From a virus (Duplodnaviria > Heunggongvirae > Uroviricota > Caudoviricetes), in IMG/VR virus record IMGVR_UViG_3300027808_000017, positions 1 to 64,000 of that record: a stretch of DNA of 64,000 bases. One strand, 5' to 3'. The position numbers and the translations under genes were made by a program. The notes beneath the pieces are model-generated. The model ran no database searches, was not told the DNA's origin, and worked only from the letters and a program-made list of their open reading frames with translations. Positions 14,389 through 62,647 of the stretch are shown here, one piece after another (within the stretch, counting starts at the first letter, position 1; each line of letters opens with the position of its first letter).

Positions 14389-14608
14389 AACAATTTATAC
14401 AGAAGTTGAAGTTGATGTTGACCTTTCAGAGTTTGAGACCGATGACCTACTTGACGAATTAGCAAGTCGTAGTTCACTCCCAATGGAAGAAGATTTCCAT
14501 GGTAAAGAAATACTTGAAGCCATTTATCATAAACGTAGAATGGGCCGCACTGATTATGAAAAAGAATTAGACCAATTGATTTGGAATAGTCTAGGCAAAA
14601 TGTTATAA
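14366..14608 (+). CDS. small acidic protein
   Basis: 80 aa, D/E-rich. Confidence 0.4.
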   Translation: MEKMMAYKTIYTEVEVDVDLSEFETDDLLDELASRSSLPMEEDFHGKEILEAIYHKRRMGRTDYEKELDQLIWNSLGKML

Positions 14609-14642
14609 TACATCGTGTAATCAACTATGAATAAATACTAGG

Positions 14643-16304
14643 ATGTTCTCACGAATCTTTTCACTCAGCAATGCCACTCTTTTAGTGGCATTGGCACTTA
14701 GTACTATCGCCGCTTGGTATAGTATTGTTGGTCTAACCGCTATCTTTGCAAGTGCGGTTATACCTATTATCATCATGGGCTCGGCACTTGAACTTGCAAA
14801 AATTATAACAACAGTCTGGTTGCGTAAGTATTGGGATCGTTGTACTTGGGTAATGAAAGTATATCTTGTTCCGGCTGTTATTGCACTTGCAGTATTAACA
14901 AGCATGGGTATTTTTGGTTTCTTATCTAAAGCACACTTAGACCAAGGTGTTATAGGTGGTGATAGTATTGCCCAAGTACAAATTTTAGATGAAAAAATAA
15001 AAACAGCAAAAGAAAATATAGAGTCCAATCGTAAGGCTCTTAAGCAAATGGATGAGGCTGTAGATCAAGTCATGGCACGTTCAGATTCAGAAAAAGGTGC
15101 AGATAAAGCAGTATCTGTTCGTAGAAGTCAGACAAAAGAACGAGTTAGATTACAAAATGAGATTATAGCTGAACAGACAAAAATTGCTAAACTTAACGAA
15201 GAACGAGCTCCTATTGCTTCAGAAGTACGTAAAGTTGAAGCAGAAGTTGGTCCAATCAAATACATTGCGGCATTTATTTATGGAGATAATCCAGATGCTA
15301 ATTTACTTGAACGTGCAGTACGATGGGTAATTATTTTACTTGTTATTGTATTTGACCCTCTTGCAATTATTTTAGTGATTGCGGCTAATCAGAGTAAAGA
15401 TTGGGATAAAGAAATTGAAGATGATAAAAATGCTATGGCTATCATCCCACCCAAAGAAGAAGATACGAGACCCTTTACCGAAGAAGAAATAACAGCATTA
15501 GATAAACCGGTAGAAGAAGTTGATATAGTTCCTGCACCAGAAACTGAACCAAAAGCAACTTGGGCTTTTCCATCTGACCCACAACCCGAATCAGTTGACC
15601 ATTATGTAGCAAACAAATTTACTGAATTTGATCCTAGATATTTGGTTACTAAAGTTATCACTGAAGAAGAATCTAAAGATATAGTGGCTTCTCCGGCATA
15701 CCCTGAAATGTATATCGATTATCAAATAATAGAAGATGTTATTGAAGAAGATTTACCACCTGTCACAAGTTGGGTAGAAATTCCTGAACCAGAAGTAATT
15801 GTAGCAGAGGAAGAAATCAAAGTAGACGATTCTCCTCCTTACGAAGGTATTAGAGATTTAAAAACAGGCCAATGGATACAAACAGGACCTGCAATTATTG
15901 ATCCAACAATAAAATCTACTATGGGTTTTAAAGATTTGGGCGGAGGGTATGTAGAATTTGAAGGCAAGAGAATGGCACTTCATGTTTTAAGAGATAAGCG
16001 TCCTGATTTGTTTGCTATCAGAGAAGACAATCCAAGACAAGTAAAAATTACTTTTGGATCCAAATCAGTTACTGTTGGTTTGATAGGTGATACGTTTATT
16101 CGTACCGATGCTATTCCCCATCGTGTTTTCAAAAGCAATGGTGAAAAATGGATAGAGATTAACAAGAACACAACAGCTACTTACTTAAGTAACACTAATT
16201 ACTTACAACATCTAATGGAAAAAATAGCAACTGGTGAATACGAACCCGACCTTTTAACCGAGTTGGAACAAGAGGCCATTTCAAATCATTTGAATTCAGC
16301 TTGA
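14643..16304 (+). CDS. multi-TM membrane protein with coiled coil and long acidic C-terminal domain
   Basis: 553 aa; ~3 N-terminal TM helices, coiled coil, further TM (VIILLVIVFDPLAIILVIAA), acidic tail. Confidence 0.55.
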   Translation: MFSRIFSLSNATLLVALALSTIAAWYSIVGLTAIFASAVIPIIIMGSALELAKIITTVWLRKYWDRCTWVMKVYLVPAVIALAVLTSMGIFGFLSKAHLDQGVIGGDSIAQVQILDEKIKTAKENIESNRKALKQMDEAVDQVMARSDSEKGADKAVSVRRSQTKERVRLQNEIIAEQTKIAKLNEERAPIASEVRKVEAEVGPIKYIAAFIYGDNPDANLLERAVRWVIILLVIVFDPLAIILVIAANQSKDWDKEIEDDKNAMAIIPPKEEDTRPFTEEEITALDKPVEEVDIVPAPETEPKATWAFPSDPQPESVDHYVANKFTEFDPRYLVTKVITEEESKDIVASPAYPEMYIDYQIIEDVIEEDLPPVTSWVEIPEPEVIVAEEEIKVDDSPPYEGIRDLKTGQWIQTGPAIIDPTIKSTMGFKDLGGGYVEFEGKRMALHVLRDKRPDLFAIREDNPRQVKITFGSKSVTVGLIGDTFIRTDAIPHRVFKSNGEKWIEINKNTTATYLSNTNYLQHLMEKIATGEYEPDLLTELEQEAISNHLNSA

Positions 16305-16324: not shown

Positions 16325-16353
16325 TTGACACTAAATCATTTTGGTGCTATACT
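16325..16353 (+). promoter_or_regulatory. sigma70-type promoter
   Basis: TTGACA-17-TATACT. Confidence 0.5.
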
Positions 16354-16387
16354 ATGTTTATTGTTCAACTACACACAGAGGTTAATT

Positions 16388-17017
16388 ATGAAACTTAAAT
16401 TATCAGTACTTGTCATTGCATTGTCACTGACCGCATGTTCTAGTATGAAGACCGGTAACGGTACTAATTCTAGTGTCCCGATCGTCAATCAAAAGCTATC
16501 TACGTCATTCGTAGCTGAGGGTGTTAAGATTGAAACTAAATGTAGTTGGTCTATGTTCGGCAAAGATGAATGTCAATTAGTTGCTATTGAGGCAATTGGT
16601 ACAGCACCTACATTTGGTAACACTACGTCAAATCGTAAGAATGCACTTACCCGTGCTCAAATGGCAGCTGAACGTCAAGTAACTGAATTTTTGCAAAAAG
16701 AAGTCACCACTAGTCGTGTTCAAAACACTATTGCCAAGAACATTGAAAAGGCTTCTGACAAAGTTAAGTCAGGTAAGACTGATGATAGCGCAGTTGAATT
16801 GACTGACAAAGAGGCAAGTACTATTAATTTGCGTGAAAATCACAATGACACCCTTGTGTCATTGACTGAAAACATTCAAACATCAGCCAAAGCAATTCTC
16901 AAAGGCTTCATCAAGACTGACGAACGAGTTATTGGTGATCAGGAAGTTTCTGTGACTATGCGGTGGGACATAGACAGTGAACTGGCTCGCAATCAACTTG
17001 CTAAAGCAATGCGATGA
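16388..17017 (+). CDS. lipoprotein
   Basis: MKLKLSVLVIALSLTACSS lipobox; RBS GAGG. Confidence 0.55.
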   Translation: MKLKLSVLVIALSLTACSSMKTGNGTNSSVPIVNQKLSTSFVAEGVKIETKCSWSMFGKDECQLVAIEAIGTAPTFGNTTSNRKNALTRAQMAAERQVTEFLQKEVTTSRVQNTIAKNIEKASDKVKSGKTDDSAVELTDKEASTINLRENHNDTLVSLTENIQTSAKAILKGFIKTDERVIGDQEVSVTMRWDIDSELARNQLAKAMR

Positions 17018-18048
17018 AATACATATTGCTTGCGGTGATGCTGGCCCTAACAGCATGTGCTAGCACTACTGAGGCTGTAAGAACTTCAAGCGATAGTCCC
17101 GATGCTGGGGTCATACGTGTTCTCGGCACAGGATCAACTAAAGAAGAGGCAAAGAATAACGGCTTCACTACTGCTATCGAAATTGCTGTTGGTTCTGCAA
17201 TTCTTTCACACAAAGATGTCCGTTCCGATAAACTTATACGTGATGACATAGTGAAATACAATGCAGGTTACGTTGATAATTATAAAATCATTGACGAGAC
17301 AAAAACAAGCGGTGGTTACTCATTGTTGATGGATGTTCATGTTAAGAGCAGTCGCATACATGAACGATTATTGAGTGGGGGCGGTGACGAGAAAAATGTC
17401 AACGGTGATAAATTGGCTACTCAATATGACACATATCGTGCCCAACAAGAATCAGCCGATAAACTCATTGATGTGTTAATACAAGATTGGCCCGAAAAAG
17501 CCTTTACTATCAAACAAGGTAAACAAGAATTTAGTATTAATGAAAAACGTGTGTCTGTATTACGAATTCCAATTGAAATGAATATGAACTATAGCTATAT
17601 TATGGCATTGGATGAGTCTCTTAAAAAGATTAACCAAAAGAAAACATATTCAGATTTAAAAATTGGTATTGCAGTTAAAGCACCCGATGATTGGGTATTC
17701 GGTAGAACCAATGGATATTTCTTTGATGACATTCAACGTATAAAACAATTCCAACAAGGGTTTAATGATAACTTTTGGATTCAAGTTCATTTAAAAGATA
17801 TTAATGGTAATTTACTGTATTCTCAGTGTTTTGAACATGGAAGAAGTTTTTCATACCAAACAACTAAGGCATTTATTTTACAAGGTAATAACTCCGTAGA
17901 TTCTAACATTGAAATTGAACTAAATTCAAAACTATCCAAGACATTGCGCCAAGCATATAGTGTAGAAATGGTTCCCTCTAGAGTTTGTATCAACAAAATA
18001 TACGAAACTATACCTCTGCTAAAATGTCCCCCGCTAAACAAAAAATGA
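17014..18048 (+). CDS. lipoprotein
   Basis: MKYILLAVMLALTACAS lipobox; ATGA-coupled. Confidence 0.55.
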   Translation: MKYILLAVMLALTACASTTEAVRTSSDSPDAGVIRVLGTGSTKEEAKNNGFTTAIEIAVGSAILSHKDVRSDKLIRDDIVKYNAGYVDNYKIIDETKTSGGYSLLMDVHVKSSRIHERLLSGGGDEKNVNGDKLATQYDTYRAQQESADKLIDVLIQDWPEKAFTIKQGKQEFSINEKRVSVLRIPIEMNMNYSYIMALDESLKKINQKKTYSDLKIGIAVKAPDDWVFGRTNGYFFDDIQRIKQFQQGFNDNFWIQVHLKDINGNLLYSQCFEHGRSFSYQTTKAFILQGNNSVDSNIEIELNSKLSKTLRQAYSVEMVPSRVCINKIYETIPLLKCPPLNKK

Positions 18049-18059
18049 TAAGTAATAAT

Positions 18060-19283
18060 ATGACCGAAGAATCTAAAATAAATTATTGTCACTTTTGTGG
18101 GAACAGCAAAGAAATTGTAAAAAAACTTGTTGTTAGTGAGAAGGTTGCTATATGCAATGAGTGCGTGGAACTATGTCAGAATCTAATCAATGATGAAGTA
18201 GAGCCAGAAAATCCGATTGAACCTAATCGTGATCCGGAGGCCATCAAAGAATATCTTGATATGCACGTTGTTGGTCAAGAAGATGCTAAGATAGTTTTGA
18301 GCGTTGCTGTTGCCAATCATTATAAGCGCATCAACAATCCACCAAAAGATATTGAAATACAAAAAGGTAATGTGTTGATTGTCGGGCCTACAGGAAGTGG
18401 TAAAACATTGCTTGCTAAGACAGCCGCAAAATATCTTAAAGTGCCCTTCATTGTTGCTGATGCTACGAGTTTGACAGAAGCCGGGTATGTTGGAGATGAT
18501 GTTGAATCAATGATTAGTATGTTGATTCATGCCGCAGGTGGTGATGTAAAATTAGCCGAGCGTGGTATTATATTTGTTGATGAAATTGACAAGATTGCAC
18601 GTAAAGGTGAAAGTGCAAGTATCACCCGTGACGTATCAGGTGAAGGTGTTCAACAAGCATTGCTCAAAATGGTAGAAGGTAGTACCGTTCGTATTCCCAA
18701 AGAGGGTGGTCGTAAACATCCTGGTGGCGATATGAGTGAAATCAATACCAAAGATATATTGTTTATTGCCGGTGGCGCATTTGTTGGTCTTAAAGACATT
18801 ATTGCTAATCGTATGAATGGTACAAGTATTGGATTTAATGCTACTATCACTGACAGCAAAGTTGAAGGTGATTTGACAAAAGTCAGTCCTGATGACTTAA
18901 CCAAATATGGAATGATTCCTGAGTTCATTGGACGTTTTACTACTACAGTAAGTATCCAAGAATTGTCTAAGAAACAATTGGTTCATATTTTGACAGATGT
19001 AAAGAACAATTATATCAGTCAATACAAGTATTTGCTAAGTTTGGATAATATCAATTTATCTTTTACTAAAGAAGCCCTTGAACAAATTGCTGAGAATACA
19101 CTAACATTAAAGACCGGAGCACGTGGTTTACATACTGAGATTGAACGTGTTTTAATGTGTCATATGTTCTATACCAAGCAATACAAAGAAAATAATATAA
19201 CTATGCTAAATATAGATGTGGGTCAAATTTTAAATCCCACACCAATATATGACGAAAAAAGGAAGACAGGTACTAGTAACTGA
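18060..19283 (+). CDS. clpX: ATP-dependent Clp protease ATP-binding subunit ClpX
   Basis: N-terminal C4 zinc finger CHFCG...CNEC; Walker A GPTGSGKTLLAKT; ClpX-like length; start set at MTEESKINYCHFCG (track ORF starts further upstream). Confidence 0.85.
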   Translation: MTEESKINYCHFCGNSKEIVKKLVVSEKVAICNECVELCQNLINDEVEPENPIEPNRDPEAIKEYLDMHVVGQEDAKIVLSVAVANHYKRINNPPKDIEIQKGNVLIVGPTGSGKTLLAKTAAKYLKVPFIVADATSLTEAGYVGDDVESMISMLIHAAGGDVKLAERGIIFVDEIDKIARKGESASITRDVSGEGVQQALLKMVEGSTVRIPKEGGRKHPGGDMSEINTKDILFIAGGAFVGLKDIIANRMNGTSIGFNATITDSKVEGDLTKVSPDDLTKYGMIPEFIGRFTTTVSIQELSKKQLVHILTDVKNNYISQYKYLLSLDNINLSFTKEALEQIAENTLTLKTGARGLHTEIERVLMCHMFYTKQYKENNITMLNIDVGQILNPTPIYDEKRKTGTSN

Positions 19284-19470
19284 TGGTAATGTTGAAAAAG
19301 CATTACGTAAGTTTAAGAAAAAAATTGCAGAGCAAGGTCTACTGCAAGAAGTCCGCGACCGTCAAGAGTTCGTTAAACCCACAGTCAAACGCAAAATTGC
19401 CAAGAGCAAAGCAAAGAGTAGATGGAAGAAACATCTACGAGACCAAGAATTACCCAAAAAACTATATTAA
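19249..19470 (+). CDS. rpsU: 30S ribosomal protein S21
   Basis: VLVTDGNVEKALRKFKKKIAEQGLLQEVRDRQEFVKPTVKRK aligns with bacterial S21 ([43 protein letters not shown]); overlaps clpX 3' end. Confidence 0.75.
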   Translation: MTKKGRQVLVTDGNVEKALRKFKKKIAEQGLLQEVRDRQEFVKPTVKRKIAKSKAKSRWKKHLRDQELPKKLY

Positions 19471-19573
19471 CCTAAATAGTTGTATATATTGCACAATCAT
19501 GTAAAATATATACTGTAGTAGATGCCTAACGGGTCTATTACAACACAATCTTGCTTTAACAAAGGAGAAAATT

Positions 19574-21490
19574 ATGAGCAAAGTAATCGGTATCGACCTA
19601 GGTACCACAAATTCATGTGTAGCCGTCATTGAAAACGGAATCCCCAAAGTAATTGAAAACAGCGAAGGTGCTAGAACTACACCCTCAATCGTTGCCTATG
19701 CCAACGATGAGATTCTTGTAGGTGCTAGTGCTAAACGTCAAGCAGTTACTAATCCAAAAAATACAATCTACGCCGCAAAGCGACTGATTGGTCGTAAATT
19801 CAAAGAAGAGGCTGTACAAAAAGATATTAACTTGATGCCGTATACCATCGTTGAAAATGACAATGGTGATGCATGGGTTCAGTTAAACGATAATAAGTTA
19901 GCACCCCCGCAGATTTCAGCGGAAGTCTTACGCAAGATGAAAAAGACTGCGGAAGATTATCTAGGTCATGAAGTTACACAAGCAGTTATTACTGTTCCCG
20001 CTTATTTTAATGATAGTCAAAGACAAGCGACAAAAGATGCAGGTAAAATTGCAGGCTTGGAAGTATTGCGTATCATTAACGAACCCACAGCAGCCGCATT
20101 AGCGTATGGTGTAGATAAACAGGAAAAGCGTGACCGTAAAGTTGCTGTATATGACTTAGGTGGTGGTACCTTTGACGTATCAATCATTGAGATTGCCAAC
20201 GTTGATGGTGACACACAAGTTGAAGTATTGTCAACAAATGGCGATACATTCTTGGGTGGTGAAGACTTTGACCAACGCATCATGGACTACTTGATTAGTG
20301 AATTCAAAAAGGATTCAGGAGTCGATTTAAGTAAAGACATGCTAGCACTGCAACGACTAAAAGAAGCCGCAGAAAAGGCTAAGATTGAGTTGTCAAGTAC
20401 AGCACAAACAGATGTTAACTTACCATATGTAACAGCAGATGCTAGCGGTCCTAAGCACATGAACATTAAGTTGTCACGTAGCAAATTGGAACAGTTAGTT
20501 GATGAATTGATTCAACGCAGTATTCAACCATGTAAGACAGCTATGGCTGATGCTAAGATTTCAATAAGTGATATTGACGAGGTTATTCTTGTTGGTGGTA
20601 TGACACGTATGCCTAAAGTACAAGAAATGGTTGAATCATTTTTTGGTAAAGCACCTCGCAAGGACGTTAACCCGGATGAGGCAGTTGCCGCTGGTGCCGC
20701 TATTCAGGGTGATGTATTAGGTGGTGGACGCACAGATGTTTTATTGCTTGATGTTACTCCATTGAGTCTTGGCATTGAAACAATGGGTGGTGTGATGAGT
20801 AAGTTGATTCAAAAGAATACAACTATTCCTACTAAACAAAGTCAAACATTCAGTACAGCAGAAAACAATCAACAAGCGGTTACTATTAAAGTATTCCAAG
20901 GTGAACGTGAAATTGCACAATACAACAAGTTGCTAGGTGATTTTAACTTAGATGGAATTCCACCAGCACCAAAAGGTATGCCTCAAATCGAAGTTACATT
21001 TGATATTGATGCTAACGGCATTATGCACATCGGTGCAAAGGACAAAGGTACTGGTAAGGAAAACAAAATCACTATTAAATCAAACAGTGGTTTGAGTGAA
21101 TCAGAGATTCAAGAAATGGTTAAAGATGCTGAATTGAATGCTGAATCTGACAAGAAAGCCCGTGAATTAATTGAGGCACGTAATGGTGCAGAATCAACAT
21201 TGTATGGATTCAAACAAGACTTTAATAAGTACAGTGACAAAGTTACTGAAGAAGAAAAAACTAAAGCCGAAGAAGCAATCAAAGCAGTTGAAGAAGCAAT
21301 CAACGGGGATGACCCAACCGTTATCCAAGATAGTATTCCTAAATTATATGAGGCAATTGGTCCAATCACTAAAGCTAAAAGTGATGAAGAAGCCAAGAAA
21401 AAGGCTGAAGAGGCAACTAAGACTACAGAAGCACCAAAAGATGACAATGTAGTTGATGCAGAAGTTAAAGAGTCACCGGAGACTGTTTAA
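19574..21490 (+). CDS. dnaK: chaperone DnaK (Hsp70)
   Basis: [18 protein letters not shown]..., full-length Hsp70 (638 aa); RBS AAAGGAG. Confidence 0.9.
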
Positions 21491-21554
21491 ACTTTAGATC
21501 GGGTGCCGCATTGCGGGCCCGACAATTATTCTTGCTTTATTAAGGAGATATAAA

Positions 21555-22001
21555 ATGACAAGAGAATTAACATTAAGAGCGTTAGACATACCAACCATTC
21601 ATAGATTTGGAATAGGATTTGATTCTATGATAGATGAACTGATGCGTATGAATGCAACGCAAACTAACACCAACTACCCACCCTATAATATAGTAAAAGA
21701 ATCTGAGGATCGATTTGCTATTGAAGTAGCGGTTGCTGGGTTTAGTGAAGGTGAGGTTTCTATTGAAATAGAGAATCGTGTACTTACAATTGCCGGTAAC
21801 AAAATACATGACTTAGATAATCCTAAAGAATATCTACATCATGGGATAAGTAACCGTAATTTTATTCGTGAATTTTCTTTAGCAGAACATGTTGAAGTTA
21901 AAAGTGCTATAAATGAAAACGGGATCTTATCTATTGGACTAGAACGAATTATTCCAGAAGAGCATAAGCCCAAGAAGATTGTAATAAATTACAATAAATA
22001 A
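21555..22001 (+). CDS. small heat-shock protein (Hsp20/IbpA family)
   Basis: alpha-crystallin-like core (AVAGFSEGEVSIEIENRVLTIAG), 148 aa. Confidence 0.75.
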   Translation: MTRELTLRALDIPTIHRFGIGFDSMIDELMRMNATQTNTNYPPYNIVKESEDRFAIEVAVAGFSEGEVSIEIENRVLTIAGNKIHDLDNPKEYLHHGISNRNFIREFSLAEHVEVKSAINENGILSIGLERIIPEEHKPKKIVINYNK

Positions 22002-22024
22002 TATAATAGCATATCGTAAATACA

Positions 22025-22052
22025 AGTGTGCGGGAAACTGCACACTTTTTTG
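22025..22052 (+). terminator. rho-independent terminator
   Basis: AGTGTGC-GGGAAACT-GCACACT followed by T6. Confidence 0.6.
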
Positions 22053-22063
22053 AAAGAGAAAAA

Positions 22064-22369
22064 ATGGCACAAACAGATACGAACCTAAGCGTAAGACCTA
22101 TAGTTGATGTAAAGGAACCACCGTTGTTCAGAGTAATTTATATGAATGATGATTTAACCAGTATGGAATTTGTTATACGGAGTTTGATTGATCATTTTCA
22201 TTACACAGATGAAACCGCAGTGAATATCACAACTGGAATTCATGATTCCGGAAGTGCAGTAGTTGCAGTGTTACCATATGAAATTGCAGAACAAAAGGGT
22301 ATTGAAGTAACTATGGAAGCCAGAACTGAGGGCTATCCGTTACAAGTTAAAATTGAGGCCGAGACTTAA
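22064..22369 (+). CDS. clpS: ATP-dependent Clp protease adaptor ClpS
   Basis: PLFRVIYMNDDLTSMEFVIRSLIDHF...VAVLPYEIAEQKGIEVTMEARTEGYPLQ aligns with ClpS ([20 protein letters not shown]...); start moved to ATG 22064 after terminator. Confidence 0.65.
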   Translation: MAQTDTNLSVRPIVDVKEPPLFRVIYMNDDLTSMEFVIRSLIDHFHYTDETAVNITTGIHDSGSAVVAVLPYEIAEQKGIEVTMEARTEGYPLQVKIEAET

Positions 22370-23054
22370 ATTCTATTCGTTTAGGGTAATAAGGATTTCG
22401 GCCCGCACACGGGTTATTAAGGTAGTTGATATTGTCTAAGACAGTATCAACTATTTTTCCATGTGTGCCAAATACCCAGTGAGATACTTTGTTTTCAGTA
22501 TCATATTCTAATGCATCAGTTAGTGGTCCGGCATCATGCATATCAGGTTCTTCACCATAATATAATTTTTTAGTTGGTACAGAACTAGAAACTACCATAA
22601 TATGTTCTACTTCTGAATGGACCTGTAATCTGTGTATAGTACTGCATAGATATGAAACATCCTCATATCCAGCAACAATTAATTCTATTTCAGCCATTTT
22701 ATTTCTAGGCTTATAATTTCCATACCATCCATTAGTGGCTACGATTGCTATCTCATTTAGCACCACTACATTATCATGTAAGAATATTACATTCTTTAAT
22801 GACGCACAAATTTCTCCAATTTCTTTGATACGTTTTTCTCTAATAATTACAGTAGAGTGTTCTAACGCACCATCAATAAAAAAGACACCCTGATAGCAAT
22901 TACTCAGGGTGTCTAATACTGTTTGTAGCATTGCTAAATCATTACTGACATTACCCGCAACAATACAATATAAACTTGTAGGTTTATCTTCCCAGATAAA
23001 GGTGTCATCTACTGATAAATTCAAATCACTAATTACATCAAATCCAAGTATCAT
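22347..23054 (-). CDS. putative calcineurin-like metallophosphoesterase
   Basis: N-terminal D-x-SDLNL, later GN/GTHGK motifs; 235 aa. Confidence 0.4.
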   Translation of the reverse strand: MILGFDVISDLNLSVDDTFIWEDKPTSLYCIVAGNVSNDLAMLQTVLDTLSNCYQGVFFIDGALEHSTVIIREKRIKEIGEICASLKNVIFLHDNVVVLNEIAIVATNGWYGNYKPRNKMAEIELIVAGYEDVSYLCSTIHRLQVHSEVEHIMVVSSSVPTKKLYYGEEPDMHDAGPLTDALEYDTENKVSHWVFGTHGKIVDTVLDNINYLNNPCAGRNPYYPKRIEFKSRPQF

Positions 23055-23115
23055 GTTTTCAACAGTTAATATGGAAATAGGACTACTGCCCTATTTCGCA
23101 ATAAAGCAGTATATA

Positions 23116-23403
23116 TTACGCTTTTGGTTTAGCTTTAGTTGTTTTAGAGGCTACTTTTTTAACGGCAGCAACTGCATCTTTAACATCAACTTTGCCGTCT
23201 TCATTGACATCTAATGCTTTTTTAACACGGGTGGTAGTCTTTTTAGCAACTTCCTTAACAACCGCTACTTCAACTTTGACTTCAGCAACGGCTTCTTTGA
23301 CAACTTCTTCAACCTTAGCAATTGCTTCTGGTTCAGATTTAGCCAAATAATTCCATAATGAGTAAACAGCAATCACTGCAACGACAACGATAATAATTTC
23401 CAT
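23116..23403 (-). CDS. membrane-anchored Ala/Val/Lys-rich repeat protein
   Basis: N-terminal TM MEIIIVVVAVIAVY; internal repeats VKEAVAEVKVEV / VKDAVAAVKKVASKTTKAKPKA. Confidence 0.5.
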   Translation of the reverse strand: MEIIIVVVAVIAVYSLWNYLAKSEPEAIAKVEEVVKEAVAEVKVEVAVVKEVAKKTTTRVKKALDVNEDGKVDVKDAVAAVKKVASKTTKAKPKA

Positions 23404-23434
23404 AGTAAAATCTCCTTGAACTAATATTTATGAC

Positions 23435-23944
23435 TTGAGGTTCCAAAGCAGATTTTTTCATAAATACTGTATGTTCAAGTCCTTGTCATTGCGAGAGTTG
23501 ATGGATCTACCCTTGCCCAAAATCACCGCGCAAAAAAGACTACTATTTAGACCGGATTTAGAGGATGTGGAACATGTCTATGATTTGTTAAATGAGCATG
23601 TTTTTGATAATATTTTAGTTAAGCCTAATATTAAATTGGGCACATGCCGAGACTATTGGGGAATGTGTTATGGGGAGGACAATCCCTATAATAGCGGAAC
23701 TTATTGCAGAATCAAACTAAGTGACAAATGGTATTCTGCTCAATGGATGGTGACAATGTTATCGCATGAAATGAGTCATCAGTATCAATGGGATGTTTAC
23801 AGTCATGGTCGTAAGACTAGAGTTATGAGCCATGGACCTAGTTTCTACAGATATCAATTAAAGATGCGGGAACACAATATTTCATTGAAAACATACTATT
23901 CTACTAGACAATGGTTTAATAAACAAGATTTGTTTAAAGCGTGA
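23435..23944 (+). CDS. SprT-like zinc metallopeptidase
   Basis: HEMSHQYQW...H motif in SprT-like context; 169 aa (true start may be Met 23471). Confidence 0.55.
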   Translation: MRFQSRFFHKYCMFKSLSLRELMDLPLPKITAQKRLLFRPDLEDVEHVYDLLNEHVFDNILVKPNIKLGTCRDYWGMCYGEDNPYNSGTYCRIKLSDKWYSAQWMVTMLSHEMSHQYQWDVYSHGRKTRVMSHGPSFYRYQLKMREHNISLKTYYSTRQWFNKQDLFKA

Positions 23945-23963
23945 AAGAGATAAATACATTACT

Positions 23964-25457
23964 ATGAGAGCAATTGAATTTTTAAAAGAATCCCAAGGTG
24001 GTATATTCCGCCGTGCCCAAGAGGTTGACCAAGGTGCGGAAATCAAGTTTAAAAACGCGGAAACAAACCAAGAAATTAAACTACTGTCAGCAGAAGTATT
24101 TCCTCAAACTGGACAATACCAAACATATGAAGAATTAGACCAAGCAGTTACTGATTTTTGTACTATGTTTGAAGTTCCACCGGAGAACGTTCAGTATGCA
24201 GGTAAACCAGATAAATCACGTGCCGCAATGGTAAGTATTTGGACGGATTTAACATCAGGTGAACCAATGGCGTTTGTTAAACTTGCTACAAAACGTAGTG
24301 AAGGTGCTTCACCTATTATGCAGAGTAATGCTGATTTTAAGAATGCGTTTGGTTATGGAGATGTAGGTAAGACAGCACAACGTCAAACATTACAATTAAA
24401 ACCAAAAGACGTATTAGCATTTGATGAATGGTTAAATCCACAAGGTGTTATACGCAGTGTTACTAGCAGATTGAAAACTAGAAGTGACCTAGACGAAAAC
24501 CTGAAGCAAGGATTAGTACAGCTTGTAACTAATGTTGCCCAAGGTGTCAGTGAGCCTGTGCCGGGTATGGCACAATATTTAACAACGTTAGAAGTTGATT
24601 ACGGTGAGGTACCTGCCCCTATTGCGTTAATTACAGGTAATTTTGTAGGAGGAGACTATCTGCAAGCCGAAAAAGGATTATTAGGTCCATTAGGTTTAAA
24701 ATGGAGCGATTTATCAAAAATATTGTATCCCAAGGCCGGGGGCGAAAAGATTTATGATAGTTACATTTATATTGATGAAGAAACCAAACTTAAAGTAAGT
24801 TCAAAAGATAAAAAAGGCGGCGCAGCCGCTAGTATTACTGGATTAATTGATGAAATTAACAAAACACCAGAAAAATTTCAAAGTGTATTACTTAATAAAA
24901 AATTCGGCTCTTTACTTAATATATGTAGGACAATTGCTAGCGCACCAAATACATATCAAGGAAGTGCAAAAAAGAGTAGCAAAAGTATAAATGGCCCTTT
25001 AATTTTAGCTGTAAATACTTTTAAATTTATTGACGACAATGATGCTAGAACAATTGTAGGGTTGATGAACTCCCCAAATAATAAAATGATGCCAGAACAA
25101 GCATACAAAAAAAATGTCATTGGTCCTAATTTATGGAAGATAATTTCAGTTAAAGGTGCCAATTATAAGGACCCGGGATATAATTTAGGTTATCATGTAA
25201 TGGCATGTGTTGCAAAAAATATTGCTAATATATGTAATAGCGATCCAAATACTGATAAATTTTTTAGGTCTATTTTGGAAAGATCCAACATGGTACAAGT
25301 TAAAACTACAGTTAAAAAATCCGGTGACGGGGCGGCATTTACTAATTTTGTTGTAATGTATCCTCCGGTCTTCGATGGCAAAATGACTATGCATGCGGAT
25401 AACAATTATATGGCGACACGAAAGCCAATCGCACCATTAAGTTTCAAAATGCCTTAA
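23964..25457 (+). CDS. hypothetical protein (497 aa)
   Basis: N-terminus MRAIEFLKES resembles N-terminus of 863-aa protein at 46123. Confidence 0.5.
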   Translation: MRAIEFLKESQGGIFRRAQEVDQGAEIKFKNAETNQEIKLLSAEVFPQTGQYQTYEELDQAVTDFCTMFEVPPENVQYAGKPDKSRAAMVSIWTDLTSGEPMAFVKLATKRSEGASPIMQSNADFKNAFGYGDVGKTAQRQTLQLKPKDVLAFDEWLNPQGVIRSVTSRLKTRSDLDENLKQGLVQLVTNVAQGVSEPVPGMAQYLTTLEVDYGEVPAPIALITGNFVGGDYLQAEKGLLGPLGLKWSDLSKILYPKAGGEKIYDSYIYIDEETKLKVSSKDKKGGAAASITGLIDEINKTPEKFQSVLLNKKFGSLLNICRTIASAPNTYQGSAKKSSKSINGPLILAVNTFKFIDDNDARTIVGLMNSPNNKMMPEQAYKKNVIGPNLWKIISVKGANYKDPGYNLGYHVMACVAKNIANICNSDPNTDKFFRSILERSNMVQVKTTVKKSGDGAAFTNFVVMYPPVFDGKMTMHADNNYMATRKPIAPLSFKMP

Positions 25458-25519
25458 CCAAAACTCTTTTAATTTGTTTTACAACGTGTTATACTTGTAA
25501 AACATTTTAAAGGAAGTTT

Positions 25520-26107
25520 ATGAGTCTAGTCCCAATCGTCATTGAACAAACAAGCAAAGGTGAGCGTAGTTATGATATCTACAGCCGTCTATTGCGTGAC
25601 CGTGTAATTTTACTTGAGGGTGAAGTACATGACCAAATGGCAAATCTTATTGTTGCCCAATTGCTATTCCTAGAATCAGAGGGTGACAAGGATATTTCAA
25701 TGTATATCAATAGTCCCGGCGGTAGTGTGACAGCAGGTATGGCAATCTATGATGCTATGCAATTCGTTAAGCCTGATATTCATACAATTGTAATGGGTCA
25801 GGCATGTTCTATGGGTAGTCTACTCGCACAATCAGGTGCACCCGGTAAACGTTTTATGTTGCCCAATGCAAGGCACATGATTCATCAACCTTCAGGTGGT
25901 GCAAGAGGTCAAGCAACTGATATGCTGATTCAGGTAAATGAAATACTTGAAATGAAAAAGAACCTAACAGGAATCTACACTAAGCACAATTCAAAAGGTA
26001 AAACTTTTGATGTACTCCAAGCTGATATGGAACGTGATAATTTTATGAGTGCTCAACAAGCATTTGACTATGGACTAGTAGACGAAATAGTTACAAAGCG
26101 AGGTTAA
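25520..26107 (+). CDS. clpP: ATP-dependent Clp protease proteolytic subunit ClpP
   Basis: [27 protein letters not shown] (Ser), HQP...GQATD (His/Asp) catalytic triad context; 195 aa. Confidence 0.9.
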
Positions 26108-26109
26108 TT

Positions 26110-26850
26110 ATGGAAGAACTAATTGACCTTTCATATGCTCATCATATCCAAGATACCGTTGACATAGAAACTATATGTTCAAATGCAATTGAAGTTAATT
26201 CAATGGAACCCTATTGTTGGCCATTAGATATACCAATAGATAAAGAATTATTATTAGAAAGTTGGAACAAGCTATTTGTTTCGCTTGGTTATACTTATGA
26301 ATCTATGACCGCATTAATGCGTGAGTATTTTGTAGAAAAATATAAACAATTAGGTCACCCCAAAGATCCAATTGCATGGGATATGAATCTAACACATTAT
26401 ACCGAACTAACCGGTGATGATCGATGGAATAAGTTCAGAGGTACCGTCGAATGGATTCTAGAAGATGGCGGAGATCCTAAAAGAGCCACTGAGATGTTAT
26501 CAGAAATAAAAAATACATACTTAGAACATGTCATCAACAGTTTATTTGAGCATCATGCTAAGAATTTTAATAGAGAATTTAAAGGGCAACTTAATGTAAC
26601 TTGGGTTGGTCCTGGTCAACGATATAATCTTCACAACGATAATAATATCTATTTAAGATATCATATTCCGATCATAACAGATCCAAAAGTCTTTTGGATA
26701 TTTCAGGATGTAAATAATGTTGAACAATATTATAAAATGCACATGCCGGTTGGTGCTGTATGGATGTTAAATCCTGTACAAGTAGTACATACCGTAGTAA
26801 ACCAATGGGACCATGCAAGGGCACATTTATTATTGTCCGAGTTTAGATAA
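26110..26850 (+). CDS. putative aspartyl/asparaginyl beta-hydroxylase-like (cupin) protein
   Basis: NLHNDNN...RYHIPIITD resembles H-x-D...RxH(L/I)P(L/I) core of Asp beta-hydroxylases. Confidence 0.35.
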   Translation: MEELIDLSYAHHIQDTVDIETICSNAIEVNSMEPYCWPLDIPIDKELLLESWNKLFVSLGYTYESMTALMREYFVEKYKQLGHPKDPIAWDMNLTHYTELTGDDRWNKFRGTVEWILEDGGDPKRATEMLSEIKNTYLEHVINSLFEHHAKNFNREFKGQLNVTWVGPGQRYNLHNDNNIYLRYHIPIITDPKVFWIFQDVNNVEQYYKMHMPVGAVWMLNPVQVVHTVVNQWDHARAHLLLSEFR

Positions 26851-43664: not shown

Positions 43665-43880
43665 ATGGCAAAAGAAGAGGGTATTAAAATGGACGGCAAG
43701 GTAGTAGATGTACTACCTAATGCCGTTTTTAAAGTAGTAATGGAAGCTGGTCCTATCATAACAGGATACATCAGCGGCCGCATGCGTAAGCATGATATTA
43801 AAATTTTATTGGGTGATACTGTTGAAGTTGAATTCAGCCCATATGATTTGACTAAAGGTCGTATAACCCGTAGACGGTAA
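43665..43880 (+). CDS. infA: translation initiation factor IF-1
   Basis: 71 aa S1-like OB fold: [63 protein letters not shown] aligns end-to-end with bacterial IF-1. Confidence 0.85.
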
Positions 43881-43923
43881 GTTGTAACAGTATTGTCACA
43901 TATATCCCAATAAATATGGGTAT

Positions 43924-44808
43924 ATGCAAAAAACTTACCGCAGTATTTTCATTAGCGATGTACACTTAGGTACAAAAGATTGTCAAGCAGGAAAATTAAA
44001 CAATTTCCTCAAGCACAATTCGTGCGATACCCTATATCTTGTGGGTGATATAATTGATGCATGGAAAATACAACAAAACAAATGGCGTTGGAAACAATCA
44101 CACACCAACGTAGTACGCAGAGTATTAGGTCATGCCAAGCGTGGCACTAAAGTAATATTCATTGCAGGCAATCACGATGAATTCTTAAGACCAATGATAC
44201 CCTATGGTTTCAGTTTTGGCTTAATAGAAATACACAATCAAATAGAGCATATAGGTGCAGACGGTAAACATTATCTTGTCACTCACGGAGACATGTTTGA
44301 TGGCCTTACAAGACTAGCACCCTGGTTATCATTCTTAGGAGACAAAGCATATGATTTCATTCTTAGCCTCAATAGCAAACTTGCTTGGATTCGTCGCCGT
44401 ATGGGTTTTGGGTACTTTAGCCTTAGCCGTTTTCTTAAGCACAGGGTCAAAAAAGCAGTAGATTTTATTTTTAAGTTTGAAGAAAACTTAGCTAAGTATT
44501 GCAAGAAGCGTGGATTTGATGGAGTGATATGCGGTCACATACATCACGCAGAAATAAAAGATATAGATGGTGTAACTTATATGAATGACGGTGATTGGGT
44601 AGAGAGTTGTACTGCGCTAGTAGAACATCATGATGGTCGTTGGGAAATAATAACTTGGACACAGGAGAGTGACAATGTGGATAATGATATTGATAGCAGT
44701 ACACGTGAACAACCCACAGGATCAACCAGGAAGAATAGAACTGACATTCAACGACCAAAAGAGTTGCGAACAAGCGTTGTTGACAATGAAGTACGAATTA
44801 AAATTTAA
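43924..44808 (+). CDS. LpxH-family metallophosphoesterase
   Basis: ISDVHLG, GDIIDAW, AGNHDEF, THGD, CGHIHH, DGDW - same motif order as LpxH; acidic C-terminal extension. Confidence 0.55.
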   Translation: MQKTYRSIFISDVHLGTKDCQAGKLNNFLKHNSCDTLYLVGDIIDAWKIQQNKWRWKQSHTNVVRRVLGHAKRGTKVIFIAGNHDEFLRPMIPYGFSFGLIEIHNQIEHIGADGKHYLVTHGDMFDGLTRLAPWLSFLGDKAYDFILSLNSKLAWIRRRMGFGYFSLSRFLKHRVKKAVDFIFKFEENLAKYCKKRGFDGVICGHIHHAEIKDIDGVTYMNDGDWVESCTALVEHHDGRWEIITWTQESDNVDNDIDSSTREQPTGSTRKNRTDIQRPKELRTSVVDNEVRIKI

Positions 44809-44829
44809 GAGTTTTAAGGTAGAAGGAAA

Positions 44830-45549
44830 ATGTCAGAAACAATACTAAGTGAAAAAATTACAATCGTTGTGCCATGTAAGAATGAAGAAAATTACATCGC
44901 ACATCTACTGATGCATCTACGCAATCAACTGATAGGTAGTACCAAAATCATTATTGCAGATTGTTCTACTGACAATACCCGTGAAGTTATTCAAGCAACA
45001 AAGGGTAGATTAAATGTAGAAATCATTGACGGTGGACCTGTTAGCATTGCAAAGAATCGTGGTGCTAAATTAGTAACTACTCCCTACATTCTATTCATTG
45101 ACGCTGATGTTCGTTTCTTTAAAGAGACAGTTATCCGTGATTCAGTCAATGAGATGGAGTCAAAGAACTTAGATTTAATCGGACTAAACATCAAATGCTA
45201 TGACCATGACAAACGTACTAGTATTGGATTTGCTGTTTTCAACGGAATCAACCGTATATTAAAACACTTTAGTCCATTTGCTGTGGGTGCTTTCATGCTA
45301 ACACGCAGAGATAGATTTGAAGAATTCGGGGGATTCCCTGAAAAGATGTCAACATCCGAAGACTATTTCCTATCCAGAAAGTACAGCCCCAAAAAGTTTA
45401 GAATTATTAAACATCATTTTGGTCAAGATAGTCGCAGATTTAAGAAGATGGGTTATTTTGGAATGGCTACATATCTTGTTAAGAACTTTGTTAACCGAAA
45501 CAATAAGAAATACTGGGATAGTTTAGACTCATCTAAGTATTGGAGCTAA
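44830..45549 (+). CDS. family 2 glycosyltransferase
   Basis: ITIVVPCKNEENYI N-terminus, DAD (DxD) motif, 239 aa. Confidence 0.65.
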   Translation: MSETILSEKITIVVPCKNEENYIAHLLMHLRNQLIGSTKIIIADCSTDNTREVIQATKGRLNVEIIDGGPVSIAKNRGAKLVTTPYILFIDADVRFFKETVIRDSVNEMESKNLDLIGLNIKCYDHDKRTSIGFAVFNGINRILKHFSPFAVGAFMLTRRDRFEEFGGFPEKMSTSEDYFLSRKYSPKKFRIIKHHFGQDSRRFKKMGYFGMATYLVKNFVNRNNKKYWDSLDSSKYWS

Positions 45550-45574
45550 TGTAAGTTGCGATAAATACTCTACT

Positions 45575-46126
45575 ATGTACGATATTGTAGAGAAAATCAG
45601 TGAATCCAGAACAAAAAAATTAGAGATAGTCAAGCTATCCTATGACCTTTCCGACCTCAATCCAGTATTAAGCAAAAAGACAATGGATTATCACTATGGG
45701 GATTTAGCCCATGGATATGCATCCCGATACAACAAGGGTGAGGGTGACAAAGATTTCAATTATGCGGGTGCTTTCCTGCACAACATTTATTTTCCGCAGT
45801 TTCGCAAAATACAAGAAGATAACACTCCTAACGGTCCTGTACTAGGAATCATTAAGCGTAAGTACGATTGGTGGAGAGATTTTAAAGAACAATTCAAACA
45901 AGAAGCCATGAAGATACAGGGTAGTGGTTGGATTTATATGAGTTATACAGGTGAGATAAAGACTATTGTTAACCACGAGGTTCGTGAAGATATTCTTATT
46001 CTAGTTGACTGGTGGGAACATGCTTGGGCCTTAGACTATCAAGCAGATAAAAAAGGTTACTTAGAAAACATTTGGAAGATAATGAACTGGAGTCACATCA
46101 ATACCCGCTGGGGGAAGAATTTATGA
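45575..46126 (+). CDS. Fe/Mn superoxide dismutase homolog
   Basis: SKKTMDYHYGDLAHGY ~ QTMEIHHTKHHQTY; GSGWIYM ~ GSGWAWL; DWWEHAWALDYQ...IWKIMNW ~ DVWEHAYYLKFQ...FWNVVNW. Confidence 0.6.
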   Translation: MYDIVEKISESRTKKLEIVKLSYDLSDLNPVLSKKTMDYHYGDLAHGYASRYNKGEGDKDFNYAGAFLHNIYFPQFRKIQEDNTPNGPVLGIIKRKYDWWRDFKEQFKQEAMKIQGSGWIYMSYTGEIKTIVNHEVREDILILVDWWEHAWALDYQADKKGYLENIWKIMNWSHINTRWGKNL

Positions 46127-48663: not shown

Positions 48664-48986
48664 TGGCATATTCAGAAAAAGTAATTGACCAAATAGTAAA
48701 AGAACACAATGTTGTGTTGTTTATGAAGGGGACCGCACAATTTCCCATGTGTGGATTTTCGGGCAAAGCTATACAACTGCTGAATGAATGCGATTCAGAC
48801 TTTGATGTATTCACTGTAAATGTGCTTGATGATAATGACATTCGACAAAGTATCAAAGAATACAGTAATTGGCCGACCATTCCTCAATTGTATGTCAATG
48901 GTGAGTTCATCGGCGGATCTGACATCTTGATCGAAATGCACGAATCAGGTGAATTACAACAATTATTAAAAAACAAGGAGTCATAA
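48663..48986 (+). CDS. monothiol glutaredoxin (Grx4/GrxD type)
   Basis: FMKGTAQFPMCGFSGKA: CGFS active site; 107 aa. Confidence 0.8.
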   Translation: MAYSEKVIDQIVKEHNVVLFMKGTAQFPMCGFSGKAIQLLNECDSDFDVFTVNVLDDNDIRQSIKEYSNWPTIPQLYVNGEFIGGSDILIEMHESGELQQLLKNKES

Positions 48987-48989
48987 TTT

Positions 48990-49018
48990 ATGGCATATTC
49001 AGAAAAAGTAATTGACCA
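48990..49018 (+). repeat. 29-bp exact direct repeat of the first 29 nt of the grx CDS (copy at 48663-48691)
   Basis: ATGGCATATTCAGAAAAAGTAATTGACCA present at both positions; second copy opens a 16-codon remnant ORF. Confidence 0.85.
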
Positions 49019-49078
49019 CTACGCAGTTATGATAGAATAATAATGCACACAACCGGGTGCACCTAGATAAATACTTGT

Positions 49079-62641: not shown

Positions 62642-62647
62642 GTAAGT

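Follow-up and report, generated by a model that had tools for sequence, protein, structure and literature searches.

A conserved chaperone, Clp and translation gene module with ROSE-like leaders in a putative large freshwater phage

The IMG/VR virus record IMGVR_UViG_3300027808_000017 carries, in its first 64,000 nucleotides (64 kb, all of which was analysed; hereafter the window), a cluster of genes for ClpX, ribosomal protein bS21, DnaK, a small heat-shock protein (sHsp), ClpS, a SprT-like metallopeptidase and ClpP. We read this cluster, with fair confidence, as a genuine module for proteostasis and translation that is conserved in a clade of uncultured freshwater phages of large, often jumbo, size. 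In the list of open reading frames (ORFs), the genes form two plus-strand runs, 17985-22369 and 23435-26850, with two minus-strand ORFs between them. Listed are the genes and regulatory features, upstream neighbours included; positions are those of the window, and R1 is a covariance model of our own, introduced below.

14581-14609, plus strand: sigma70-like promoter of p553 (consensus scan)
14643-16304, plus strand: p553, membrane/coiled-coil protein, upstream neighbour of the module
16325-16353, plus strand: sigma70-like promoter of the lipoprotein-clpX-rpsU block (TTGACA-17-TATACT)
16385-17017, plus strand: p238, predicted lipoprotein with a lipobox-like N-terminus (LTAC-S / LTAC-A in the p238/p344 pair)
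17014-18048, plus strand: p344, predicted lipoprotein directly upstream of clpX, lipobox-like N-terminus
18024-19283, plus strand: clpX, 419 amino acids (PRK05342; longest ORF from TTG 17985)
19249-19470, plus strand: rpsU-like gene, bS21 (PF01165, TIGR00030)
19480-19507, plus strand: sigma70-like promoter of dnaK (-35 TTGTAT, 16-nt spacer, -10 TAAAAT)
19513-19579, plus strand: ROSE-like leader of dnaK (R1 50.3 bits, E 1.4e-8)
19574-21490, plus strand: dnaK, 638 amino acids, accessory insert in a variable slot (NF001413)
21494-21560, plus strand: ROSE-like leader of the sHsp gene (ROSE_3 25.9 bits; R1 64.7 bits)
21555-22001, plus strand: sHsp, IbpA-like, 148 amino acids (PF00011)
22002-22053, plus strand: clpS promoter and conserved 5' hairpin (the -10 TATAAT abuts the sHsp stop codon)
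22064-22369, plus strand: clpS, 101 amino acids (PF02617; longest ORF from GTG 22028)
22347-23054, minus strand: metallophosphoesterase-like gene, 235 amino acids, convergent with clpS (phrog_1649 via a distant homologue)
23116-23403, minus strand: p95, N-terminal hydrophobic segment (family match only weak, sub-cutoff)
23501-23944, plus strand: SprT-like zinc metallopeptidase, 147 amino acids by gene finders (PF10263; longest ORF from 23435)
23964-25457, plus strand: p497, conserved protein without family match (497-amino-acid ORF)
25520-26107, plus strand: clpP, 195 amino acids, no propeptide (PRK00277)

ClpX scores 508.9 bits against PRK05342 (cutoff 359) and 479.2 bits against TIGR00382 (cutoff 370.75), and its zf-C4_ClpX domain is recognised by PF06689 at 42.9 bits, with CxxC...CxxC aligning to E. 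coli ClpX. When the protein is aligned with E. coli ClpX 8e91, the four zinc-finger cysteines, Walker A GPTGSGKT, Walker B DEIDK, the pore loop GYVG, the RKH loop, the arginine finger EFIGR and sensor-2 GARGL are kept, all motifs being identical or conservative. The IGF loop that docks ClpX on ClpP reads SIGF, aligned with GIGF of E. coli; an IGF-like [ILMV]GF motif occurs in 80/80 ClpX relatives, and GYVG in 79/80. The likely start of clpX is ATG 18024 or 18060, position 17985 being merely the start of the longest ORF. The bS21 gene, which overlaps the 3' end of clpX by 35 nt, encodes a protein scoring 57.5 bits against PF01165 (cutoff 27) and 51.2 bits against TIGR00030 (cutoff 28.95).

DnaK reaches 987.6 bits against NF001413 (cutoff 648) and 917.5 bits against TIGR02350 (cutoff 822.55); HscA models stay below their own cutoffs. 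It is collinear with E. coli DnaK 1-592, interdomain linker included, without notable gaps, and possesses a full nucleotide-binding domain, linker, substrate-binding domain and lid. The alpha-crystallin domain of the sHsp matches PF00011 at 63.1 bits (cutoff 20.8). Against the IbpA equivalog model NF008013 the protein scores 122.7 bits, under the cutoff of 212; as judged from these scores it is an IbpA-related sHsp, not an IbpA equivalog. ClpS matches PF02617 at 82.1 bits (cutoff 23), its NCBIfam equivalog scores all lying below cutoff, and its N-degron pocket (NDD-T-M...H) aligns to C. crescentus ClpS 3dnj. We take ATG 22064 rather than GTG 22028 as the likely clpS start, because relatives begin ClpS at the equivalent ATG and a 5' hairpin lies inside the GTG-22028 extension.

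Downstream, the SprT-like protein matches PF10263 at 32.6 bits (cutoff 25.6) and carries HEMSH with a downstream MSHGP; HExxH and MSHGP are kept in 18/18 homologues, and a sequence search for a solved relative of this protein returned none. ClpP scores 301 bits against PRK00277 (cutoff 249) and 286.7 bits against TIGR00493, just under 308.6. Its catalytic triad, Ser in GQACSMG, His in MIHQP and Asp in ERD, aligns to solved ClpP, and the protein begins at the mature N-terminus, without a propeptide. Since its score against the head-maturation (prohead protease) model NF045542, only 102.7 bits for a cutoff of 120, is low relative to the ClpP models, we regard it as a true ClpP. An earlier reading of this DNA from its letters alone, referred to here as the original prediction, had named these genes and described their catalytic motifs as intact. 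Both statements hold: all ORFs are present, full length and above the cutoff of their family (equivalog or Pfam), and residue alignments to solved structures find the catalytic residues unsubstituted.

The remaining genes are less readily named. A homologue of the metallophosphoesterase-like protein in locus L070 matches phrog_1649 at 3.7e-29 with intact DxH, GD, GNxEH and GHxH, and the distant relatives L070, L059 and L095 retain DxH, GD, GNxEH, H and GHxH (labels of this kind, including L011, L032 and L077 below, denote related metagenome or IMG/VR loci compared with the window). The copy in the window, which is weakly similar to metallophosphoesterases, is degenerate, with DLN, GN, GALEH, SSS and GTHG in the corresponding places. 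Because the metal-binding motifs are lost and yet the gene evolves with a ratio of nonsynonymous to synonymous divergence (dN/dS) of about 0.1, its product is probably a pseudoenzyme with a kept non-catalytic role. For p553 there was no Pfam, PHROG or PADLOC match, and for p497 no Pfam/NCBIfam family match. The p95 gene, which is called on near-identical metagenome contigs, gave a weak Dockerin_1 match below cutoff and no tblastn match in 80 ClpX-related loci. The two lipoprotein genes apparently share a transcription unit with clpX, and p344 diverges fast, at 37-67% identity where ClpX is 79-96% identical. Three nucleotides past the clpP stop begins an Asp/Asn beta-hydroxylase-like protein (weak PF05118; 26110-26850), for which tblastn found no match in 80 ClpX-related IMG/VR loci.

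Is this arrangement peculiar to one contig? A ClpX-protein scan of IMG/VR yielded at least 143 related viral contigs, which span up to 359,563 bp and of which 8 exceed 200 kb. Related contigs include IMGVR_UViG_3300042549_004104 (359,563 bp), 3300017917_003143 (343,632 bp), 3300032116_000004 (315,778 bp) and 3300023174_003073 (170,986 bp, ClpX 96%). We examined 80 of them, reading about 21 kb of each; their ClpX is 55-96% identical to that of the window. The gene order is p553 - (two lipoproteins) - ClpX - bS21 - (slot) - sHsp - ClpS - phosphoesterase-like gene on the opposite strand, continuing downstream with (SprT-like) - (p497) - ClpP, and this synteny is retained down to 55% ClpX identity. 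By tblastn of the island proteins against these loci, ClpX is accompanied (80/80) by sHsp in 77/80, by bS21 in 75/80, always directly 3' of clpX, by ClpS likewise in 75/80, by the phosphoesterase-like gene in 69/80, and upstream of clpX by p553 in 66/80 (73 by clustering). The other genes are sparser: the p238/p344 lipoproteins occur in 35-36 loci, ClpP within 10 kb of clpX in 30, SprT-like in 19, DnaK in 17, always between bS21 and sHsp, and p497 in 11. The island is a conserved core, ClpX-bS21-sHsp-ClpS, to which DnaK, SprT-like, p497 and ClpP are lineage-specific additions. The original prediction had treated the 8 kb as one unit; it had also called such a gene set rare in phages, which is true of cultured phages, but this ClpX type lies on at least 143 IMG/VR contigs and the core recurs among the 80 examined.

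The position between bS21 and sHsp accepts other cargo too. In three relatives (L081:11617-13571, L082:11632-13554 and L103:12137-13774) the slot ORFs read as GroES-GroEL after a ROSE-like leader, DnaK being absent, and in two others (L063:11640-14378, L067:11625-13235) the slot has an IscU-like gene and a second gene instead of DnaK; both kinds of call derive from N-terminal sequences only, without a family-library score. Upstream of clpX, a multi-pass membrane protein (L066:7156-7878, a cluster in 11 relatives) resembles the BAX-inhibitor/YccA type by eye only; proteins of that type modulate FtsH in E. coli.

All island genes are maintained by selection, the phosphoesterase-like gene and p497 included. 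Estimated by the Nei-Gojobori method between the window and its two closest diverged relatives, L077 and L011, dN/dS is 0.03-0.17 for every island gene at a synonymous divergence (dS) of 0.3-1.3. Individual values are 0.03-0.05 for clpX, 0.06-0.08 for the sHsp gene, 0.05-0.09 for the SprT-like gene, 0.08-0.09 for clpS, 0.09-0.10 for dnaK and 0.09-0.12 for the phosphoesterase-like gene; the upstream neighbour p553 has 0.14.

Where did the inserted dnaK come from? The nearest bacterial DnaKs are those of Burkholderiales (Comamonadaceae and others), among them Limnohabitans, Paracidovorax, Rhodoferax, Hydrogenophaga and Polynucleobacter, at about 70-73% full-length identity. In a neighbour-joining tree of 18 phage DnaKs and the 80 closest bacterial DnaKs, the 18 phage proteins form one clade with no bacterial sequence inside. 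L074 and L026 group together by DnaK, though their ClpX proteins are 60% and 79% identical to that of the window. This pattern fits a single capture of dnaK from a betaproteobacterium, after which the gene was inherited, lost in places and at times passed between phages. It should be weighed against the make-up of the tree, which carries no support values and draws its bacterial sample, one genome per GTDB species, from a scan limited by its search pattern. Beside it stands an observation on other genes: ClpP of the window (25520-26107) is 95% identical to that of L032 (17464 region) at dS 0.67, when ClpX of the same pair is only 78% identical at dS about 2.2, and dS of DnaK is also lower than that of neighbouring genes. 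The lower divergence of ClpP and DnaK suggests that phage lineages have swapped single genes of the module by recombination.

The putative transcription signals of the module are sigma70-like. A sigma70/terminator scan from 14 to 29 kb of the window found 65 sites where shuffled sequences gave 56, which is not above expectation overall, and we used only promoter sites backed by conservation in relatives. At the place of the dnaK promoter (19480-19507) relatives have TTGACA-N17-TATAAAT, 4-6 nt before hairpin 1 of the leader. The clpS promoter, TTGTAA-17-TATAAT, lies at 21979-22007, its -10 box at 22002-22007 abutting the sHsp stop; almost all relatives have TA(A/G)TATAAT at this point and then a strong hairpin before clpS, the stem kept while the sequence varies. 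Apart from the ROSE-like leader, then, a second and different leader structure is conserved here. A search for sigma32-type promoters (CTTGAAA-N-CCCCAT) gave no credible match near module genes. From these boxes we infer use of the host RNA polymerase.

The leaders of dnaK and the sHsp gene are built alike. In the former, hairpin 1 (19516-19540) is followed by the anti-Shine-Dalgarno (anti-SD) sequence CUUGCU at 19550-19555 and the Shine-Dalgarno (SD) sequence AAGGAG at 19562-19567; in the latter, which begins 4 nt past the dnaK stop without a promoter of its own, the corresponding elements are at 21499-21522, 21531-21536 and 21542-21547. The bS21-dnaK and dnaK-sHsp spacers share ...UCUUGCUUUA-N-AAGGAG...AUG. 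Within the 60-70 nt before the sHsp start, relatives have a sigma70-type promoter, often exactly TTGACA-N17-TATAAAT, then after 4-6 nt hairpin 1, with the consensus GUAGAUGCCGAUGGUCGGGUCUAC, and after it a variable spacer, CUUGCUU, a short A/U loop, AAGGAG and AUG. The original prediction had missed these leaders and the promoters.

What are these leaders? Short ROSE-like thermometers of Pseudomonas ibpA, in which the anti-SD motif follows the rule U(U/C)GCU (PMC3669281), offer the closest parallel. The Rfam model ROSE_3 (RF02523) matches the sHsp leader of the window from end to end of the model, with 25.9 bits (E 0.013 when 2.2 kb were searched), and matches L059 with 33.2 bits (E 3e-5). Our model R1, built from 69 leaders, found 100 copies in 1.4 Mb, every one on the coding strand and two of them in the window. 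Sites whose downstream gene was checked lie nearly all directly before an sHsp, dnaK or GroES-like ORF, the exceptions being two weaker matches before another small ORF and one very weak match before clpS. In the model-based alignment 94.6% of cells are paired, compared with 81.7% in column shuffles. Hairpin 1, which RNAalifold also predicts, with compensatory changes at 8/10 pairs, has 95.6% of cells paired and a covariation score of 0.50 versus at most 0.17 with slid partners. Helix 2 has 92.9% of cells paired with one-sided changes only, as is expected because one of its strands is the ribosome-binding site and fixed. UUGCU is invariant or nearly so across the 69 leaders; its variants are UCGCU and UUCGU, and UUGCU and UCGCU obey the ROSE rule (PMC3669281). 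In the minimum free energy (MFE) fold of the sHsp leader UUGCU pairs with AAGGAG, and the SD is thereby closed off by a weak stem-loop that has a bulged G.

The likeness to the Pseudomonas ibpA element (RF02523; PMC3669281) extends to a leader of about 60 nt with two hairpins before an ibpA-type gene, to a U(U/C)GCU imperfectly paired with the SD so that a G is left opposite and the start codon free, and to the core sequence of hairpin 1, common to the window leader and the Rfam consensus. Unlike that element, the one described here is on a phage genome, also precedes dnaK and a GroES-like ORF, follows a sigma70-like promoter with no sigma32-type box found, and scores below the family threshold. 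In our reading the leader is a homologue of the bacterial short ROSE elements, probably captured with an ibpA-type gene and copied before each slot chaperone. Such a leader would sense temperature.

Several results count against so specific an identification. Both ROSE_3 scores, 25.9 and 33.2 bits, are below the gathering score of 43 bits, and Rfam at gathering gave no match in the window or in seven relatives. Hairpin 2 cannot covary, the ribosome-binding site being fixed, and the centroid fold of the sHsp leader does not contain it; the MFE fold of the dnaK leader pairs UUGCU with the start-codon region instead, and z-scores of single-sequence folds are modest, -1.4 to -3.0. It is possible, if rather unlikely, that the leader is not a thermometer at all, hairpin 1 serving as a 5' stabilising stem-loop like that before clpS, and UUGCU being conserved for protein binding (sHsp autoregulation) or for strong ribosome-binding-site spacing. 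The sub-threshold Rfam scores, the marginal hairpin 2 of single-sequence folds, the other pairing preferred by the dnaK leader and the different, covarying 5' hairpin after the clpS promoter, which makes 5' hairpins general to these transcripts, would all agree with such a role. Against it, the core GAUGCCGA...UCGGGUC is common to hairpin 1 and the ROSE_3 consensus, and the ROSE_3 match covers the entire model, SD hairpin included. The motif varies only as UUGCU, UCGCU and UUCGU, the first two conforming to the U(U/C)GCU rule (PMC3669281), and marginal stability of hairpin 2 is what a thermometer requires.

If the leaders are ROSE elements, how did the slot acquire them? A bolder reading, which we hold somewhat less likely than not, is a plug-and-play chaperone slot, in which a promoter and a ROSE-type leader after bS21 would have received host chaperone genes (DnaK, GroES-GroEL and others) repeatedly, each with a copy of the leader, so that the phage would gate translation of its own chaperones by temperature or by the physical state of the infected cell. 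Were this true, a family of RNA thermometers would for the first time have been shown to pass by vertical descent through phage genomes, and it would be physically linked to a phage ribosomal protein acting at the anti-Shine-Dalgarno region. Should the leaders be thermometers, water temperature or host stress would act directly on phage gene expression.

The module lacks several partners of its products. DnaK depends on a J-protein and on a nucleotide-exchange factor; ClpS serves ClpA as adaptor, not ClpX, and in proteobacteria works only with ClpA (Dougan et al. 2002, as cited in PMC6102473). Across the window no called gene matches PF00226 (DnaJ) or PF01025 (GrpE), and a tblastn with the J-domains of E. 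coli DnaJ, CbpA, DjlA and HscB gave no HPD-containing match in the window or the 80 loci. Pfam tables and tblastn agree here with the original prediction, which had seen no DnaJ or GrpE in the window. Its description of the gene set as a complete complement does not stand, for the window is without ClpA, ClpB, DnaJ, GrpE, GroEL and Lon, and the partner of ClpS is ClpA. Because the phage DnaK is close to Burkholderiales DnaK, its use of host DnaJ and GrpE is plausible.

How might the module work? The ancestral core would have been clpX - rpsU (bS21) - promoter and ROSE-like leader - sHsp - clpS - convergent phosphoesterase-like gene, into whose slot a betaproteobacterial-type dnaK was inserted with its own copy of the leader, SprT-like, p497 and clpP being added downstream. 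Host RNA polymerase would read the module from the sigma70-like promoters. On the dnaK and sHsp messages a stable hairpin would be followed by a weak one in which UUGCU is paired to the ribosome-binding site, and melting of the weak hairpin, by heat or another destabilising condition, would raise translation. The sHsp may hold unfolding proteins and DnaK refold them, helped by DnaJ and GrpE of the host. The bS21 proteins of phages are known to become part of ribosomes, and that of the module would likewise join those of the host. With their IGF loops, ClpX hexamers would bind ClpP of the phage or of the host and break down tagged proteins. ClpP is near clpX in only 30/80 loci, so that a ClpXP pair of phage genes is not a general feature; relatives without a nearby clpP could have the gene elsewhere in the genome or use host ClpP. 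ClpS would capture N-degron substrates, could act only through host ClpA, and would thus redirect ClpAP of the host, a prediction that Iyer et al. made for other jumbo phages (PMC7824862). On balance the phage would bring its own protein quality control and a translation factor, sustaining or redirecting protein production in the infected cell. Put most simply, the phage would supply extra capacity for folding, holding and degrading proteins, together with a ribosome modifier, at a time of heavy phage protein synthesis. What the sequences establish is gene identity, intact motifs, conserved synteny, purifying selection, the origin of DnaK and the structure of hairpin 1; enzymatic activity, choice of partners, timing and temperature sensing we infer.

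Could the module be a weapon instead? ClpXP and ClpS-ClpAP might selectively destroy host regulators or defence proteins and the SprT-like peptidase clear others, the chaperones being secondary. An offensive takeover or counter-defence of this kind would be in keeping with the zinc-finger domain and RKH loop that ClpX retains for binding substrates and adaptors, and with the intact N-degron pocket of ClpS; Iyer et al. argued that phages turn patchily distributed peptidases, ClpP and ClpS on the host (PMC7824862), and phage heat-shock proteins have been proposed to counter defences (moraphage paper, PMC12619734). We nonetheless consider it unlikely. The most conserved partners of ClpX are sHsp and bS21, not ClpP (30/80) or SprT (19/80), foldases (DnaK, GroES-GroEL) have entered the variable slot repeatedly, in better agreement with a role in folding than with targeted degradation, and the module has no PADLOC match beyond generic AAA similarity.

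Does the window belong to a phage at all? Its 119 non-overlapping ORFs, mostly small orphans, give a coding density of 91%, and among them are a T4-type ATP-dependent DNA ligase (phrog_114, 1e-89), a 5'-3' exonuclease (phrog_107, 6.5e-37) and an AAA ATPase (phrog_2376, 3e-91); the best relatives of these replication-type genes are in large myoviruses. Also encoded are a dCMP deaminase, an IF1-like protein, superoxide dismutase, glutaredoxin, IscU and two IscA proteins. The whole window gave no tRNA by tRNA scan and no Rfam RNA at gathering. Across several JGI and ENA samples, 15 independent metagenome contigs encode an identical DnaK in the same gene order, and five IMG/VR contigs, one of 170,986 bp, contain an exact 41-mer of dnaK; because 15 contigs show the same neighbours, assembly chimerism is excluded. 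A near-identity DNA search of the 8 kb against 50,697 GenBank phage records returned nothing relevant, so the phage is not deposited there. Telling against a phage is that no capsid, portal, terminase or virion gene occurs in the 64-kb window or in the roughly 10 kb of upstream flank that was read. Since no structural gene was seen, the phage assignment, which we judge very probable, rests on the IMG/VR classification and the replication-type genes; hints of a tailed phage in relatives amount to a PAAR protein only, and related contigs of 171-360 kb are classed viral by IMG/VR.

That the window is instead a bacterial island, plasmid or other element miscalled viral, with ordinary cellular heat-shock genes, is very improbable. 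Such an element would explain why 64 kb and about 10 kb upstream hold no structural or packaging gene and why all products are typical cellular proteins. The gene order, however, is unlike bacterial clpP-clpX, clpS-clpA or grpE-dnaK-dnaJ operons, the 119 ORFs are mostly small orphans, and the ligase, exonuclease and ATPase match their PHROGs strongly, with best matches in large myoviruses. More than 140 IMG/VR contigs, eight above 200 kb, have this ClpX type, the phage DnaKs are a clade of their own, and rRNA and tRNA are absent. A giant eukaryotic virus was rejected, since clpX, clpP, clpS, ibpA and rpsU are of bacterial type and Shine-Dalgarno sites are used; the best matches to phage ligase and ATPase oppose it as well. 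That the genes are recently captured host DNA, carried passively without function for the phage, as the 70-73% identity to Burkholderiales DnaK and the resemblance of the leader to a bacterial ibpA leader might suggest, is scarcely credible given dN/dS of 0.03-0.17 over dS of 0.3-1.3, synteny kept to 55% ClpX identity, and no frameshifts or lost motifs.

How does the module compare with known systems? Among cultured phages, the Agrobacterium jumbo phage Atu_ph07 has ClpX, ClpA, ClpB, ClpP, ClpS and DnaJ (PMC6102473), and related Sinorhizobium phages add GroES, Hsp20, bS21 and IF-3 (PMC11242549). Like the window, Atu_ph07 and its relatives (AP-J-162, Phosso) encode bona fide ClpX, ClpP, ClpS, Hsp20 and bS21, and the closest phage relatives of the window ClpP are those of Atu_ph07 (67%) and Phosso (68%). 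In Atu_ph07 clpX is followed by the gene of a translation factor, IF-3, where the window has bS21. Unlike in the window, its genes are scattered (gp2, gp292, gp492, gp676, gp708), without DnaK or shared synteny; its ClpX is only about 50% identical to that of the window, and no ROSE-like leader has been reported there. Iyer et al. list ClpP, ClpS, SprT-like peptidases, Hsp20, DnaJ, ClpA and ClpX as sporadic jumbo-phage genes (PMC7824862). Chen et al. (2022), who surveyed 900 published bS21 phage genomes, counted Hsp20 no more than ten genes away from bS21 in 127 of them and Clp proteases at that distance in 50 and 47 (PMC9723584). This is the same association of bS21 with Hsp20 and Clp as in the window, but there it was only counted, and in the five clades treated in depth bS21 lies among capsid, portal and terminase genes of phages with predicted Bacteroidetes hosts (PMC9723584). 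In the window, by contrast, bS21 lies between clpX and the chaperone slot, and the affinity of DnaK is betaproteobacterial.

Full-length Hsp70 in large uncultured phages is also found in the Lak megaphages, which have ClpX as well, in the huge phages of Al-Shayeb et al. and in moraphages, the last with DnaK, DnaJ and Hsp20 and a DnaK acquired from the host lineage (PMC12619734). These DnaKs are 51-59% identical to that of the window and have other bacterial origins (Flavobacteriales for moraphages). Unlike moraphages, the window has no DnaJ that we could see, and a fixed-slot DnaK behind a ROSE-like leader has not been described for any of those phages.

T4 gp31 replaces GroES. Rki of phage RB43, a J-domain protein, binds host DnaK (as cited in PMC12619734). 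Like the phage of the window, these phages tune host chaperone machines; gp31 and Rki supply a co-chaperone to a host chaperone, whereas the phage of the window supplies DnaK and apparently relies on host co-chaperones. To our knowledge, the fixed ClpX-bS21-slot-sHsp-ClpS architecture, its interchangeable DnaK/GroESL cargo and phage ROSE-like leaders have not been described before; a literature search on ROSE or RNA thermometers with phage found no such report, which, coverage being incomplete, is absence of evidence only.

Phage chaperone and Clp genes have so far been reported as scattered curiosities. Here they make up a syntenic, selected module in a large, abundant group of uncultured freshwater phages, so that the question why big phages carry their own protein quality control can be put to the test by comparison. 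The variable slot, in which one position is taken by DnaK, by GroES-GroEL or by nothing, amounts to a natural experiment. ClpS without ClpA and DnaK without DnaJ/GrpE predict specific phage-host protein partnerships, and the DnaK phylogeny points to Burkholderiales hosts (Limnohabitans, Polynucleobacter, Rhodoferax), ecologically dominant lake bacteria.

Other regions of the genome deserve mention. A cluster at 43665-50678 forms an iron-sulfur and oxidative-stress set, comprising the IF1-like gene (PF01176; 43665-43880), the Fe/Mn superoxide dismutase (45575-46126), glutaredoxin (48663-48986), IscU (49668-50051) and the two IscA/HesB genes (50035-50678); IscU also occurs in the chaperone slot of some relatives. 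The independent metagenome contigs L012, L013 and L014 all end within about 500 bp of each other, at about 62160-62660 of the window, which may be a hypervariable or repeated region or the genome end; for the ORFs at 59547-60146 and 63407-63970, near this end of the window, no exact match is recorded. In the flank of about 10 kb before the window, L021:1-9925 encodes UvdE, a glycosyltransferase, an epimerase and an Hc1 histone-like protein, together with GTP cyclohydrolase I, a QueD-like PTPS and a radical-SAM protein, which suggest 7-deazaguanine DNA modification.

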